This document shows positions 5,275 to 20,000 of a stretch of DNA of 20,000 nt, piece after piece (position 1 is the stretch's first letter; every line of letters starts with the position of its first letter). Origin of the DNA: an uncultured virus (IMG/VR IMGVR_UViG_3300037455_001519) (Duplodnaviria; Heunggongvirae; Uroviricota; Caudoviricetes); the IMG/VR virus record IMGVR_UViG_3300037455_001519. One strand, 5' to 3'. The notes under the pieces are model-generated. The model had not been told where the DNA came from and ran no database searches. It saw nothing but the letters and a program-made list of their open reading frames with translations. The position numbers and the translations under genes are program-made.

Positions 5275-5895
5275 ATGAAAAAACAAAAAACAAGACTAAG
5301 ATTAAAAAGAAATGTAAAGGTTACATTACTTTCAATATTAGTCACTTCTATTATGGCAGGAGGTATTGTAGGTATTAAATCATTACAAACTCCACCAACA
5401 ACAGTTGTTGACGCTGCTAAAGCAGAAATAACTGAAATAAAAATAGAAGAAATTGAAACTACTGAACCTACTACAGTAGCTGCACCTGTTGTAGCGCCAG
5501 TTGAAGCTGAGGGAACGAAGAAAGTTGAAGAAAAAACAGCAGTAGAAAATAATTCTATGCAATATAGAATGACTTTCTATGCTACTGATGACGGTTATGG
5601 AACTGGTTCTGTAACTGCTTCAGGAAAATCTACTAAAGATTTTCAAATCAATGAAAATGGATGGTATACATACCAAGGAAAACTTGTAGTTGCAACAGCA
5701 TCAACAAGACTTGGTAAAACCAATCAAAAAACATACAAACTTTACGATGAGTTAGAAATAACTATTAAAGGTAAAAAATACGATGCTATCGTATTAGATG
5801 CTTGCGGAGCTTGTATGAAGGGTAAAAAAATTGATTTATTTGTTAGTTCAACAAAATATGGCTATGACGGCCAAGTTACTGTAGTAAAGAAGTAG
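5275..5895 (+). CDS. Membrane-anchored 3D-domain (double-psi beta-barrel) cell-wall protein
   Basis: N-terminal TM, T/E/P-rich linker, C-terminal MTFY...VTASG...AIVLDACGACMKGKKIDLFV matching the 3D/MltA-like pattern. RBS AAGGAG. Confidence 0.7.
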   Translation: MKKQKTRLRLKRNVKVTLLSILVTSIMAGGIVGIKSLQTPPTTVVDAAKAEITEIKIEEIETTEPTTVAAPVVAPVEAEGTKKVEEKTAVENNSMQYRMTFYATDDGYGTGSVTASGKSTKDFQINENGWYTYQGKLVVATASTRLGKTNQKTYKLYDELEITIKGKKYDAIVLDACGACMKGKKIDLFVSSTKYGYDGQVTVVKK

Positions 5896-8714: not shown

Positions 8715-8837
8715 AAAATGTAAGCCTCCTAATTCTATATAAAAAGTAGCAACCACACTTTAACTTTTTTATAAAAGTTAGCTATTTCTTAATATTTTAT
8801 AAACACACAATAAATATTTCTTATATTTATTAATACA

Positions 8838-8866
8838 ATTATAACACCTTTTGTAAAAAATGTCAA
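8838..8866 (-). promoter_or_regulatory. Consensus sigmaA promoter
   Basis: Minus strand TTGACA-N17-TATAAT with TG extended -10. Confidence 0.8.
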
Positions 8867-8943
8867 TAAGATGTTAAAAAATGTAAAGTGTTAATAATAA
8901 AAAATATTGTTATTTTTATAAAAAAAATAAATATAATATGTAT

Positions 8944-9057
8944 ATGATTAATAGAGGGTCGCGTCCTTTATTAATTCGTGTTCGAACACACAAAATCTTT
9001 AAATAGAACCCCTCATCTATTTAAAGGTGGAAAAGAAGGATTTATCCTTCTTTTTTT
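8944..9057 (+). ncRNA. Candidate ~115 nt small RNA (three hairpins plus terminator)
   Basis: TATAAT at 8932-8937. Stems 8946-8958/8964-8976, 8978-8989 and 8995-9007/9016-9028 (loop ACCCCTCA). Terminator 9031-9057. No ORF. Confidence 0.6.
9031..9057 (+). terminator. Intrinsic terminator
   Basis: AAAAGAAGGA-ttta-TCCTTCTTTTTTT. Confidence 0.8.
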
Positions 9058-9118
9058 GTGCATATTAAAATAAAAAAAATATAAAATATATTATAAAAAC
9101 ATTGGGAGGTAAATGCTT

Positions 9119-9259
9119 ATGGATGATAATACAAACACTATTTTTATGATAATAGTAGGAGTTATTATTTTATGTTTGATTGTAATATTATTTAGAGATA
9201 ATATTGGAGATTTAATTTCTGGAGCATTGGGTTCTCCTAATACTTATCAAACGCATTAA
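9119..9259 (+). CDS. Small Flp-pilin-like membrane protein (46 aa)
   Basis: Not in ORF track. RBS GGGAGGT; MDDNTNTIFMIIVGVIILCLIVILFRDNIGDLISGALGSPNTYQTH. Hydrophobic helix followed by FRDNIGDLI amphipathic segment, as in Flp1-like pilins. Confidence 0.7.
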   Translation: MDDNTNTIFMIIVGVIILCLIVILFRDNIGDLISGALGSPNTYQTH

Positions 9260-16703: not shown

Positions 16704-17537
16704 ATGAATGAAAGTATTTTTTATATAGATTATTGTTTAGATATATATTCAAAATTAAAAATTTGGGATGGTGAAATTAAAAAATATAATCCAAATACCG
16801 GAAGATTTGAAACAATTGAAGACAATAAGAAAATTTTCAAAAATAATGCTATAGAAATAGATTTGGATTCAGTAAGAAATATTATTAAAAATATGATTCA
16901 CTCAGAATATAGCAACTGTTTAGAAGAAAATGATGAAAAATGGTTGGATAGATATGAAAAAGAATCGAAAAAAAGACCTGAATTATTAAATAATCAAGAA
17001 TTAATGTTTAATTATCTAGTTTTGAAATCCAAGTTAGCTGGTTTAGATGAAGAAATAGCTTGTCAATTATATGGATATTATTTTAAATCAAAAAATGAAA
17101 GTGATATTAAATTACAAACAATTCCTGAAATTTTAGCAGTCTTAGAAAATTTTATAAATAACAAAAAATATTGGATACCAGATATTACAAATGAACTTAA
17201 TAAAGAGTTTTCTATTATAGACGATATTATGGTAAAAAGAATGTCTACAGTAACTTTTGATTTTTCATTTTTCGAATCGAGATATTTAGGAATCTGTAAT
17301 AACGGATATTTAAAAAGAATATATGAATATAATAACAAAATATCAAAATATGTTAAAAAGGAACAAACATTAGAAGAGCTAAAACCTTTCTTGCTTAAAT
17401 ATTACAAAAAGAAAACGAATGAATTTATGGATATTTTAACTGAAAAGTATGAATATTTCAGAAGCAATGTAGCTAGTAGAGCTATGATATATAAAAATAT
17501 GGAAGAAATCATTAAATATTCTATGAGATTTTGGTAA
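16704..17537 (+). CDS. Hypothetical protein
   Basis: ORF open from 16674; ATG 16704 follows an AAGGTGA RBS. Followed by a terminator. Confidence 0.65.
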   Translation: MNESIFYIDYCLDIYSKLKIWDGEIKKYNPNTGRFETIEDNKKIFKNNAIEIDLDSVRNIIKNMIHSEYSNCLEENDEKWLDRYEKESKKRPELLNNQELMFNYLVLKSKLAGLDEEIACQLYGYYFKSKNESDIKLQTIPEILAVLENFINNKKYWIPDITNELNKEFSIIDDIMVKRMSTVTFDFSFFESRYLGICNNGYLKRIYEYNNKISKYVKKEQTLEELKPFLLKYYKKKTNEFMDILTEKYEYFRSNVASRAMIYKNMEEIIKYSMRFW

Positions 17538-17553
17538 TACCAAAGTCTTTTTT
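17526..17553 (+). terminator. Intrinsic terminator
   Basis: AGATTTTGGT-aat-ACCAAAGTCT-TTTTT; insulates the downstream ncRNA from the upstream gene. Confidence 0.75.
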
Positions 17554-17586
17554 ATTATTAGTTTAAAATACAAGTATAATATTAAC

Positions 17587-18031
17587 ATAAGTAGAGGAAA
17601 GGATTCCCGCTTATAAGTGCTACATATGTTAGCACAAGTCTCTGATAATTTTAAAATAACCCTAATTATTTATTTTAAAATAAGACATTTGCCTTTAACA
17701 GGGTTGAGACTTTTTTACTCGTCTTAAACATTCCAATGCGAAAAACTTTTTAGTTTTGCGCGGGGCACTTAGTTTAAGAATGGATAAAAGAACTGTGAAA
17801 TTCGTTTAATCAATTTGAGGGAATTGATAAACATTAAGAATTTCCTTTTACATAAAAAGCAGTACATATGGCTGCTGTAATTGGTTCTATTTTTATCCTA
17901 GGGTTAAAAAAATAAATGTCAATAGCCAAAGGTCTTTCCAATGGCTTAGTACATATAAAGGTATTCCCGTATATATTTTTATATGTATATCTTATTTTTG
18001 TACCAAAGCTCCGCGCTGAGGTACTTTTTTT
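17587..18031 (+). ncRNA. Candidate large, highly structured ncRNA (~445 nt)
   Basis: ORF-free and GC-enriched relative to other spacers. TATAAT at 17575-17580. About ten stems with G-U pairs favouring the + strand, several long-range pairings, and a 3' hairpin followed by U7. Confidence 0.75.
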
Positions 18032-18047
18032 GTGCACTAAAAAAGTA
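18000..18047. terminator. Terminator region between ncRNA (+) and ORF 18061-19044 (-)
   Basis: GTACC...GGTAC followed by TTTTTTT, overlapping TACTTTTTT-tgtgcact-AAAAAAGTA. Confidence 0.65.
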
Positions 18048-18060
18048 AGATATTTCTATC

Positions 18061-19044
18061 TTACTTTCTTAATGTTTGAACCATTTTAACTAATCTATCA
18101 AAAACTCTGTAAATCTTTTGCATTTGGTCTTTTCTTATTATATAATAATCTTTTGCAATAAGAGCTTTTTCTTCTTTTAATTTAATATTTTCATTCTTAA
18201 TATTTTCATATTCTTGTTTAATAATATTAAACTCTTCTTTTATTTGTTGAATTTCATTCTCTTTTTCTTCTAAATTATTTTTATAAATTAAATTTAAGCT
18301 TTCTTTTTCTTGTTGTTCAGCTAATAAAGAATTATTTAATTCTTCTTCCCTACCTCTAATTTCTTTAACAAAATCAGAATTTACAAGTTTAAACGCTTCT
18401 GTATTAATATTGTTAATTTGTTCTATACTTAATTCAGTCGTTTCTTTTGTTGCAGGTAATTCGACAGTATCTTCATTACCTTCTTCTTCTAAAACTTCTT
18501 TAACTTTATCAACTAATTCTTCATCAATTTCTTGATTATGTGTATTAGATACATTTTCTTCTAATACTTCCACAGCTTCTTCAGCTGTATTTATAGTTTC
18601 ATCTAAGCTACCTGTATTAGTTTCATTAATAATATCTTGAACATCTTCTGTAGAATCATTTTCAATATTTTCTACAACTGATTGAACGTCTTCGTCATTA
18701 CTTAATTCGATATTATCTAATCTAAAATTAAGTCCATTTCCGTCAACATATTTGATAAGTGGTTTAGTATCCATAATATCAATTGGAGATACAAAATAGC
18801 TATAAACAATTCTAGCAATTTCTATTTCAGCAGCTCCTAATGTTTTACCACCAAATCTTAAAGTTAAATAAGCTTTATTATCTTTAACTAATGGTTCATA
18901 TTTTTCACCATCAAGAGTTTCGATTTTTCCACTTTCAAAAATTTTATAAGAATGAAATTTAATGTATCTACCTCTACCTTGTTTTACGATAGATACTTCC
19001 TCATTATTTGAGAATATCTTTTTTAATGCGTTCAACATATACAC
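18061..19044 (-). CDS. Degenerate HNH-like N-terminal domain with acidic linker and coiled coil
   Basis: YKIFESGKI...YLTLRF...IARIVYSYF...IKYVDGNGLNFRLDNIE parallels the phage HNH pattern (vHRlv..aF...vnHidG.k.nN...NLe) with both His replaced. C-terminal coiled coil. Confidence 0.6.
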   Translation of the reverse strand: MYMLNALKKIFSNNEEVSIVKQGRGRYIKFHSYKIFESGKIETLDGEKYEPLVKDNKAYLTLRFGGKTLGAAEIEIARIVYSYFVSPIDIMDTKPLIKYVDGNGLNFRLDNIELSNDEDVQSVVENIENDSTEDVQDIINETNTGSLDETINTAEEAVEVLEENVSNTHNQEIDEELVDKVKEVLEEEGNEDTVELPATKETTELSIEQINNINTEAFKLVNSDFVKEIRGREEELNNSLLAEQQEKESLNLIYKNNLEEKENEIQQIKEEFNIIKQEYENIKNENIKLKEEKALIAKDYYIIRKDQMQKIYRVFDRLVKMVQTLRK

Positions 19045-19077
19045 CTCCTAGGAAATACTTTTTGTGTGGTCTATATA

Positions 19078-19106
19078 ATTATAACAGTCTTTTTGAAAAA
19101 TGTCAA
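19078..19106 (-). promoter_or_regulatory. Consensus sigmaA promoter
   Basis: Minus strand TTGACA-N17-TATAAT with TG extended -10. Confidence 0.8.
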
Positions 19107-19679
19107 CTATCTATTTAAACTTCCTACAATACTTAAACAAATAGATGTTATTAAAGGAATCATTCCTATAAACATTGCCGTAGCAAATATATCACCTATT
19201 TTTCCAATAACTTCTTGTCTTCTTTGTGGATTGTTAGATGCAGCTCCTAAATTAATCATATTGTAAACAAAACCAAAACCAAGAATAAAGATGATAATAC
19301 CAATAGCAGTATTGATTATGTTTTTGATTAATGAAATTAGACCTTGCATTTTTTCACCATATACCGTAGTATTACTTCCTCCACTACCTTCTTTTAATGG
19401 ATATTTATAATATTTAATAGCAATATTTCCATTATCATTAGAATAAAAACTAGATATTCTACTTTTCATATTATAACAATCGGACCCACTTGCTCTAGGG
19501 TCACAAGCACAAGTTTTAGCTTCTTCACTAAAATCAGAAGACGAATTTCCATTTTTATTATTAGCAATAGTAGATGGGCTACAATATTTAACAGCACTAA
19601 CAGTGCTATGATTTATAGTACCAATAAATAAAAATACGCTAAAAAACGAAAATAAGATTACAAATATTTTTTTATTCAT
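19107..19679 (-). CDS. Secreted/membrane protein with C-terminal VirB2/TrbC-pilin-like hairpin
   Basis: Signal peptide and a 4-Cys domain, then TM-NLGAASNNPQRRQEV-TM, a pilin-like two-helix arrangement. RBS GGGAGGT. Confidence 0.6.
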   Translation of the reverse strand: MNKKIFVILFSFFSVFLFIGTINHSTVSAVKYCSPSTIANNKNGNSSSDFSEEAKTCACDPRASGSDCYNMKSRISSFYSNDNGNIAIKYYKYPLKEGSGGSNTTVYGEKMQGLISLIKNIINTAIGIIIFILGFGFVYNMINLGAASNNPQRRQEVIGKIGDIFATAMFIGMIPLITSICLSIVGSLNR

Positions 19680-19780
19680 ATATACAACCTCCCAAAGGAT
19701 TTTTTAACTTCTTTTATATTATATGGTAAATAAGTAGTAAATAGAAATAATTTTAATTAAAGAAAAATTTTCTTTTTTCT

Positions 19781-20000
19781 TATTATTATATATAAATATA
19801 ATTATATATAATATCAATATAAATTCTCAATAATATCAATATATTATATATAATTAATAATATTTATTTATTAAAATAAATAATATCAAAATAAAAAAAA
19901 TAAATTATTTATTATAAATAATAAAAATATTATTTTTTATATTAAATATAAAATATTATTTTTATATTAATTAATAATTAATTATTTATTATTTAAAAAA
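19781..20000. other. Extreme AT tract with short imperfect repeats
   Basis: 5 C and 0 G in 220 nt. AATATCAA occurs three times; imperfect tandem AAAATATTATTTTT(T)ATATTAA at ~19923-19970. Confidence 0.6.

Follow-up and report, generated by a model that had tools for sequence, protein, structure and literature searches.

A candidate stand-alone structured RNA gene in a long intergenic gap of an uncultivated, phage-like element from the rumen

A stretch of 20,000 nucleotides (nt) from an uncultured virus (IMG/VR record IMGVR_UViG_3300037455_001519), referred to here as the window, contains between two convergent genes a segment of 445 nt (17587-18031, + strand) that is the subject of this analysis. 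The segment is a bounded unit, enriched in guanine and cytosine (GC) and free of credible open reading frames (ORFs), with many stable local stems and with loops and linkers that are complementary to one another. We lean, with modest confidence, toward reading it as a new, narrowly distributed family of stand-alone structured non-coding RNA (ncRNA) of a rumen phage with a Bacillota-type host, similar in kind to ROOL and GOLLD without belonging to either family. An uncultivated mobile element of 24% GC from the ruminant gut would thus carry an RNA gene of about 400-445 nt. Transcription of the + strand would start near 17587 from its own -10 promoter and would end at the hairpin and U-tract of 18000-18031, or possibly earlier, near 17988. 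The transcript is predicted to fold into a row of local stem domains, i.e., the hairpins P1 and P2, three multi-stem domains and two 3′ hairpins, with loops and linkers that may pair mutually through one loop-loop interaction of 7 base pairs (bp) containing CAUAUG and through three long-range pairings. The RNA would work as a folded body, either as a compact tertiary structure or as a self-associating scaffold of the ROOL/GOLLD kind, and is proposed to be neither an mRNA, an antisense regulator or a cis-acting leader, nor a member of a described family.

The setting of the segment is unusual for this DNA. The window has a GC content of 24%, as does its coding DNA (approximately 24%), and its genes are tightly packed on both strands. 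The gap that separates the convergent genes 16704-17537 (+) and 18061-19044 (-) spans 17538-18060 and is, at 523 nt, one of the two longest in the window. Its GC content is 29.3%, compared to 14.4-21.2% in the nine other gaps of more than 100 nt, and exceeds that of every other long gap by 8-15 points. Raised GC is a classic mark of structured RNA in AT-rich genomes. The first-pass annotation of this DNA had described an independent unit in the gap, and the features on which this description was based are all present. The upstream gene ends in an intrinsic terminator (17525-17559, + strand) with an 11-bp stem, a 3-nt loop and a T-run, the hairpin part of which (17525-17549) is recovered by a terminator scan. 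A -10 box, TATAAT, can be read at 17575-17580 (+), 7 nt before the first helix, which begins at 17587. At the other end of the proposed transcription unit (17587-18031, 445 nt, +) lies a putative intrinsic terminator (18000-18031, +), composed of the stem 18000-18004/18020-18024, a 15-nt loop carrying the complement of 17758-17766, and T7 (U7 in the RNA) at 18025-18031. Beyond it, a terminator-like hairpin followed by T5, assigned to the convergent downstream gene by reading of the sequence, occupies 18039-18067 (-). Of the marks of a gene with its own promoter, terminator and transcript, the -10 box, the terminator hairpin and the GC excess are therefore present, while the -35 region is poor.

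The earlier observation that the gap contains no credible ORF is confirmed as well. Only two ORFs of at least 50 amino acids (aa) overlap the region, a 67-aa ORF with a GTG start (-) and a 57-aa ORF (+) that crosses both terminators, and both lack a Shine–Dalgarno sequence. By manual count, a clear motif of the GGAG/GAGG/AGGAG type lies within 20 nt upstream of 16 of 20 ORFs in the window. One alternative explanation is that the transcript is an mRNA for a small hydrophobic peptide, for example one resembling a type I toxin or another micro-protein, and that its structured part is a long untranslated body. The + strand does contain short ORFs of 33-36 aa (17617/17626), 15 aa (17868) and 57 aa (17916) with hydrophobic products. 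However, T-rich DNA is expected to yield hydrophobic, aromatic-rich translations, none of the short ORFs in the gap has a Shine–Dalgarno sequence at working distance, the 57-aa ORF runs across both terminators, and the 67-aa antisense ORF has no relative besides itself in a search for relatives. A peptide-encoding mRNA is therefore, in our view, very improbable. A type I toxin-antitoxin mRNA was rejected, as no Shine–Dalgarno sequence precedes any of the short ORFs at working distance.

The segment is also represented in RNA libraries. Parts of the stretch occur in 20 sequencing runs from cattle, sheep and goat gut metagenomes, and six of these runs, from five studies, are metatranscriptomes. 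Four metatranscriptome runs from four studies were mapped on 17000-18600, and in all four, whole contigs lie inside the gap, within 17599-17987. In run X4, a contig of 334 nt covers 17599-17932 at a depth of 10.4, with exact flank contigs at 17430-17580 (depth 2), 18079-18238 (3.4) and 18267-18419 (6). In X5, the contig covers 17607-17987 (381 nt, depth 24.8), with exact flanks at 17000-17052 (2) and 18298-18477 (4.7). For X17 (17617-17950, 333 nt, depth 23.2) and for the sheep run X19 (17628-17779, 151 nt, depth 2.7) no exact flank contigs are listed. In three studies, contig depth is five to twelve times higher in the gap and only there, for which an abundant transcript is the best explanation. 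Taken together, the contigs suggest that the unit is transcribed, although they fall short of proof; the contig gaps at 17581-17598 and 17988-18031 say nothing about the ends of the transcript. The sequence of the sheep run is identical to the stretch apart from one 1-nt gap, and the region is nearly identical between cattle and sheep runs.

The same contigs bear on the possibility that the segment is a cis-acting untranslated region (UTR): it could belong to the upstream gene, as a long 3′ UTR or as a processed 3′ fragment, or could regulate the convergent gene by transcriptional interference. Such a role would fit the position of the segment, directly 3′ of gene 16704-17537 and converging on 18061-19044, as well as the poor -35 region. 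Yet a strong terminator stands between the RNA and the upstream gene, and in X4 the upstream contig (17430-17580) is separate and has a depth of 2, as opposed to 10.4 within the unit. Moreover, the terminator of the RNA precedes that of the convergent gene, so that the two transcripts need not overlap. Altogether, a cis-acting UTR is quite unlikely.

Besides composition and library representation, the folding of the segment sets it apart in several respects. The + strand of the 445-nt unit has a minimum free energy (MFE) of -110.9 kcal/mol and a z-score of -4.32, and none of 100 shuffled sequences folds as well. When isolated, all sub-domains fold better than their shuffles, with z-scores between -2.3 and -5.7. 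The number of perfect helices of at least 7 bp with at least two G-C pairs is 8, compared to a mean of 3.18 (standard deviation 1.78) in 169 control tiles; only two of these tiles reach 8, one of them being the other structured gap of the window. The self-complementarity of the segment is thus within the top 1% of tiles, approximately. Its 3′ half is more stable on the + strand than on the - strand (-28.7 vs. -23.0 and -22.5 vs. -17.3 kcal/mol), and several stems of the + strand contain G-U pairs where the opposite strand would have A-C mismatches.

This strand dependence is relevant to the idea that the segment acts at the DNA level, as an origin of replication, as a site for packaging or as a series of inverted repeats bound by a protein. 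In favor of such an element, the overall predicted stability of both strands is equal, there is a GC-rich, near-palindromic pair GCGCGG/CCGCGC with its halves 250 nt apart, and the adjoining gene encodes a protein with a DNA-binding, homing-endonuclease-like domain. Conversely, no iterons or tandem repeats are listed in the region, the G-U pairs are strand-specific, the segment is bounded by a terminator and a promoter-like box, and the RNA-library contigs are confined to the unit. A DNA-level element is consequently regarded as very unlikely.

The predicted architecture of the RNA follows largely the helices of the first-pass annotation. All 15 of these are complementary, 14 of them perfectly or with G-U pairs at their ends, and the remaining one, 17804-17816/17821-17832, needs a bulge. 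On the + strand, the first element is hairpin P1 (17587-17614), with the stem 17587-17592/17609-17614 and the inner stem 17596-17599/17604-17607 (pair probability 0.81-0.84), followed by hairpin P2 (17617-17635; 0.89). Domain A (17636-17712) consists of a closing stem, 17636-17642/17706-17712, and two inner hairpins, as predicted by the MFE of the isolated sub-domain; in the full-length ensemble its stems have a probability of 0.09-0.48. In domain B (17722-17779), the stem 17722-17729/17772-17779 (0.47) encloses the hairpin 17738-17761 (0.87-0.90) and a G-rich strand (17758-17766). Domain C (17782-17898) is a predicted three-way junction with the hairpins 17797-17844 and 17858-17876. It is the best-defined part of the structure, with probabilities of 0.72-0.99 and, in isolation, a z-score of -3.54 that is matched by none of 200 shuffles. 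A linker (17899-17923) comes next, the halves of which are perfectly complementary to 17657-17664 (8 bp) and 17684-17690 (7 bp). The 3′ part (17924-17988) forms two hairpins, 17924-17946 (0.95-0.98) and 17949-17988 (0.99); the sub-domain 17921-17990 has a z-score of -5.66. Lastly, the terminator hairpin 18000-18024 has a pair probability of 0.87. For 17636-17781 the prediction is ambiguous: the stems of the first-pass annotation form when this region is folded by itself, but in the full-length MFE structure it pairs with the linker at 17899-17921.

The three long-range pairings that had been proposed are complementary as described, but their ensemble probabilities are low to intermediate, i.e., 0.12, 0.48 and 0.28, the latter two values belonging to 17657-17664/17899-17906 and 17684-17690/17914-17920, respectively. 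Two of the three pairings cross each other. The helix 17648-17658/17671-17681 shares 2 nt with the pseudoknot strand 17657-17664, and 17758-17766, the 5′ strand of the 9-bp GC pairing, overlaps the well-predicted local hairpin 17738-17761. One pairing can be added to the earlier list: the 7-nt loops 17623-17629 (P2) and 17864-17870 (hairpin 17858-17876) are perfectly complementary, and both contain the palindrome CAUAUG. A further perfect complement of 7 bp with three G-C pairs, 17614-17620/17765-17771, is a competitor of P1 and P2 and borders on the G-rich strand 17758-17766; it could be an alternative conformer.

A bolder version of the proposal can be drawn from these loops, namely that the RNA founds a new class of large phage RNAs, which build an RNA-only, homo-oligomeric scaffold or cage. 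In such a multimer, the loops 17623-17629 and 17864-17870 would kiss between chains and the linker 17899-17923 would clamp domain A, giving a scaffold or cage analogous to those of ROOL and GOLLD and unrelated to them in sequence. Drawn by analogy, this version is unlikely as it stands. Given the CAUAUG loops and the kissing-loop cages of ROOL and GOLLD, the same behavior is testable for the present RNA.

Several results weigh against the reading as a structured RNA gene. First, the claim that the segment folds better than expected is only partly upheld. The + strand beats all 100 shuffles, but the - strand has practically the same z-score (-4.35), and 7 of 44 control tiles of 445 nt from the window, coding regions included, reach a z-score of -4 or lower. 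Folding energy alone therefore fails to single the region out. Second, a conditional shuffle test for complementarity between unpaired segments, which had given 3 helices against 0.11 expected (0 of 1000 shuffles as good), was withdrawn. It hinged on manually trimmed stems that are not reproduced by an automated local fold; with the latter, the + strand of the target has 0 helices of the same type and its - strand 1, and none of 338 control tiles has more than 1. Third, the ends of the unit are missed by scans: a consensus promoter scan does not list the TATAAT site at 17575-17580, the -35 region being poor, and the terminator scan does not list the hairpin 18000-18024, because its loop is 15 nt long. 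Fourth, the library data consist of assembled contigs with one depth figure per contig, and the runs were picked for holding the stretch; DNA may occur in RNA libraries, the strand is unspecified, and contigs alone are no proof of transcription. Lastly, the 'ornate' architecture with multiple pseudoknots, as put forward in the first-pass annotation, is a prediction from complementarities within a single sequence; these are real, but the one variant, X17, contains no double compensatory change.

Several of these points would also fit an ordinary intergenic spacer, in which two convergent terminators, a stray -10-like box and chance complementarity in AT-rich DNA produce the appearance of a unit, and in which the contigs of the RNA libraries stem from carried-over DNA, from read-through or from the way in which the runs were chosen. 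Relatives of the segment are, furthermore, absent from the DNA collections scanned. On the other hand, a spacer does not readily account for a GC content 8-15 points above that of all other long gaps, nor for a length of 523 nt in a densely packed window. Contig depth is 10-25 inside the unit and 2-6 in exact flank contigs of the same runs, across three studies, cattle and sheep runs carry nearly the same sequence, and the self-complementarity of the segment ranks among the highest of all tiles. A mere spacer is on balance unlikely. If it nevertheless turned out to be a GC-rich spacer, the case would serve as a useful caution, as a genome with 24% GC commonly yields z-scores of -4.

Two other parts of the window may be mentioned with respect to folding. 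The lowest z-score of the window, -7.55 (MFE -109.2 kcal/mol), is found at 5341-5785 (+), inside the ORF 5275-5895, where GC is raised (0.31); z-scores this extreme hence arise in genes of this element. The other long gap contains, at 8936-9060 (+), a small structured candidate of approximately 125 nt with three hairpins, the last being a terminator with T7. It is preceded by a promoter-like TTGTTA-17-TATAAT, has an MFE of -39.7 and a z-score of -6.2, shows no Rfam match, and adjoins a small downstream ORF (about 9110-9259) with a strong Shine–Dalgarno sequence. It is possibly a leader or a small RNA (sRNA).

The natural variation in run X17 provides evidence in both directions. Over 333 nt, its contig is 96% identical to the stretch, with 14 substitutions and one gap. 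Eight of the 14 substitutions and the deletion are reported with their positions, all at least 31 nt from the contig ends; the six others would lie in the last 30 nt at either end, covering P2 and the hairpin 17924-17946. A17861G and G17871A both retain pairing in the hairpin 17858-17876, by changing A-U to G-U and U-G to U-A, respectively, consistent with an RNA of the + strand. A17647G and A17780G are located at junction positions. Pointing the other way, A17742G, the deletion of 17743 and T17757G weaken the base of the hairpin 17738-17761, A17906T (present in X19 as well) disrupts the terminal pair of the long-range helix of 8 bp, and G17870A breaks the loop-loop pair unless C17623, which lies 6 nt from the contig end and outside the reported positions, is also changed. 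In total, X17 contains two one-sided changes that preserve a pair and no double compensatory change, and its variation neither favors nor refutes the structural model.

The RNA is not a recognizable member of any family with a covariance model in Rfam. With Rfam 15, no match at the gathering score is obtained in the whole window. At E ≤ 10, the 701 nt of 17450-18150 give eight short chance matches to unrelated families only, and none to the models of ROOL, GOLLD, OLE, introns, RNase P, 6S or tmRNA. The segment is therefore not a recognizable ROOL, GOLLD, OLE, intron, RNase P or tmRNA. The first-pass annotation, which could not assign the segment to a known family, is thereby borne out; one of its two options, that of a divergent ROOL, GOLLD or OLE, finds no support in the covariance-model scans. 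A related explanation is a degenerate group I intron tied to the homing-endonuclease-like neighbor, or a highly divergent member of the three large RNA classes, for which the rumen origin, the phage-like carrier and the resemblance of the neighbor to I-HmuI could be invoked. Nevertheless, no model matches even at this permissive threshold, the segment is shorter than ROOL and GOLLD, no tRNA is present in the 20 kilobases (kb), and there is no split host gene. All of this makes a divergent known class extremely improbable. Group I and group II introns as such were rejected, since no model matches and no interrupted host gene with flanking exons is found: a stop codon and a terminator close the upstream ORF, and past the RNA there is no + strand ORF that would continue it.

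Searches for homologs gave no relative of the RNA. Searched by blastn against phage and plasmid records, the gap yielded nothing, and neither did the upstream protein when compared with phages by tblastn. In viral contigs, single proteins from the flanks or nearby retrieved nothing but two unrelated signal-peptidase loci. Of two alignments, A1 found nothing in metagenome, viral and genome contigs and A2 nothing in viral contigs, and exact RNA patterns had no match in viral and metagenome contigs. A two-block RNA pattern returned at least 120 stretches from genome contigs, which were chance matches only. The RNA as a DNA query in three genomes, and alignment A1 in 399 scored Clostridia genomes of 401, were likewise without match, both being samples from which absence does not follow. 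None of 122 candidate loci resembles the RNA by blastn (best E 0.98); GC is below 45% in only two of these, L001 and L002, both from the search with a nearby protein. The scanned collections are thus empty for the RNA and for both of its neighbors, and the window contains no paralog of the RNA. A search of the literature found no description of an RNA of this kind, and four short strings of the RNA are absent from six of the nine supplementary files of a published catalog of phage RNA candidates (PMC10690425).

Both genes next to the RNA encode proteins with relatives. The upstream flanking gene (16704-17537, +) encodes a conserved hypothetical protein of 277 aa, counted from Met11 of the listed ORF. 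Five relatives with 56-79% identity, listed from Logan or ENA assemblies, all begin at the equivalent of M11. The protein has no Pfam or PHROG family. Its AlphaFold2 (AF2) model has a predicted local distance difference test (pLDDT) score of 85.5, and no fold in the PDB matches at E ≤ 0.001; weak matches to small beta-barrels are no evidence of relationship. The downstream flanking gene (18061-19044, -) encodes an N-terminal domain resembling HNH homing endonucleases, followed by a disordered acidic linker and by a coiled coil that is long, with about 90 residues (AF2 pLDDT 72.6). It matches the HNH endonuclease family phrog_959 with an E-value of 1.6e-4, and its top Foldseek match is I-HmuI (1u3e_M; E 1.7e-3, probability 1.00, 93 columns). 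Nineteen relatives were found, of which about 15 are clear, and a motif Y-x-D-x-x-G-x-N-F is invariant across 11 of them. Compared with the canonical HNH motif, its first histidine is presumably missing here. Judging by its sequence, the protein may be an inactivated, DNA-binding derivative of an HNH homing endonuclease. The gene is convergent with the RNA and has its own terminator, and no evidence of a functional link between the two was seen at the locus.

Other recognizable products of the window are a ClpP-type protease, an HD phosphohydrolase, an SNase-like nuclease, an S26 signal peptidase, an anaerobic ribonucleotide reductase activase and a RecD2/Dda-like helicase. The nearest phage relatives of the helicase have 25-30% identity and infect Bacillus, Lactococcus, Listeria, Staphylococcus and similar hosts. 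Most other ORFs of the window have no assigned family in Pfam and PHROG scans, the window in its entirety has no megablast match among phage and plasmid records, and ARAGORN detected neither a tRNA nor a tmRNA in the 20 kb. One relative of a flanking gene is located on a contig of 203 kb. The carrier is most likely a large, uncultivated phage from the rumen with a host of the Bacillota type, a megaplasmid being less likely.

Some further properties of the element were observed. Among 20 ORFs examined, the stop codons are TAA (16) and TAG (4), and TGA does not occur. Reading the window with code 4 (TGA = Trp) shifts the start of a single one of these ORFs, from 1194-1634 to 1194-1649, and opens no new ORF within the gap. 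TGA is thus essentially unused in these 20 genes, as code 4 moves only one ORF start. A promoter-like block is present in two copies on the - strand, 8833-8879 and 19073-19119, which are 74% identical over 47 nt. The second copy contains, at 19106-19078, a perfect TTGACA-17-TATAAT with a TG extension (12/12), the best match of the promoter scan. Both blocks are probably strong promoters of the element, in contrast to the weak -35 region before the RNA. Lastly, 19680-20000 is extremely AT-rich and forms several long, imperfect inverted repeats with other AT-rich gaps; 19501-20000 has a GC content of 14%.

Few bacterial and phage ncRNAs exceed approximately 400 nt and have complex folds. Among phage RNAs, the phi29-type packaging RNA (pRNA) multimerizes via complementary hairpin loops and is much shorter than the present candidate. 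For the candidate, no Rfam family gives a match, and none of the genes beside it was identified as a packaging gene. As to phage RNA candidates in general, a catalog based on comparative evidence in phage genomes has been presented (PMC10690425; Comput Struct Biotechnol J 2023). The object described here is of the same kind as those of the catalog, i.e., an intergenic structured phage RNA candidate, but the catalog is described as comparative, whereas the candidate is derived from a single sequence. Since large catalogs of this type exist, a new candidate as such is unsurprising. Its unusual features are the size, the apparent complexity, the occurrence in RNA libraries from five studies and the lack of a family match.

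The closest points of comparison are ROOL, GOLLD and OLE, which are reported to form RNA-only multimers, as shown recently, and for which the function is described as still unknown. OLE is described from bacterial chromosomes of extremophiles, with protein partners and an RNA-only dimer. As a large ornate RNA of Bacillota, OLE resembles the candidate as proposed, but the latter has no match to its model and is located on a rumen mobile element instead of an extremophile chromosome. GOLLD members are reported to be often longer than 800 nt and often near tRNA islands, and their nanocages to include self-interacting kissing loops. GOLLD is, as the candidate is proposed to be, a large structured RNA associated with phages, and its kissing loops recall the two CAUAUG loops; the candidate differs by the absence of a model match, by a length below 800 nt and by the absence of tRNA genes in the 20 kb. 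Of the context typical for ROOL and GOLLD, both of which are said to be encoded by phages and prophages, the tRNA proximity is thus missing and the phage-like gene content is present.

ROOL, first found in cow rumen data, is described as abundant at the RNA level, with a mean length of 581 nt, six multistem junctions, three pseudoknots supported by covariation, and assemblies held together by kissing loops between chains. Compared with this architecture, the candidate has 445 nt, about three predicted multistem domains, and pseudoknots that are complementarities within a single sequence. It also lacks a covariance-model match and nearby tRNA genes, and its family appears very narrow, whereas ROOL is reported to span three phyla. 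Nonetheless, the candidate as predicted resembles ROOL in being large and non-coding, in having several domains and in its long-range and loop-loop pairings, and it shares with ROOL its habitat, the rumen, and a phage-like carrier, with matching contigs in metatranscriptome libraries of cattle and sheep. If the proposal is correct, such RNAs can reside in narrow uncultivated lineages, overlooked by comparative pipelines, and a further, unrelated class would offer, next to ROOL and GOLLD, a second and smaller system in which to study what these RNAs do for phages.

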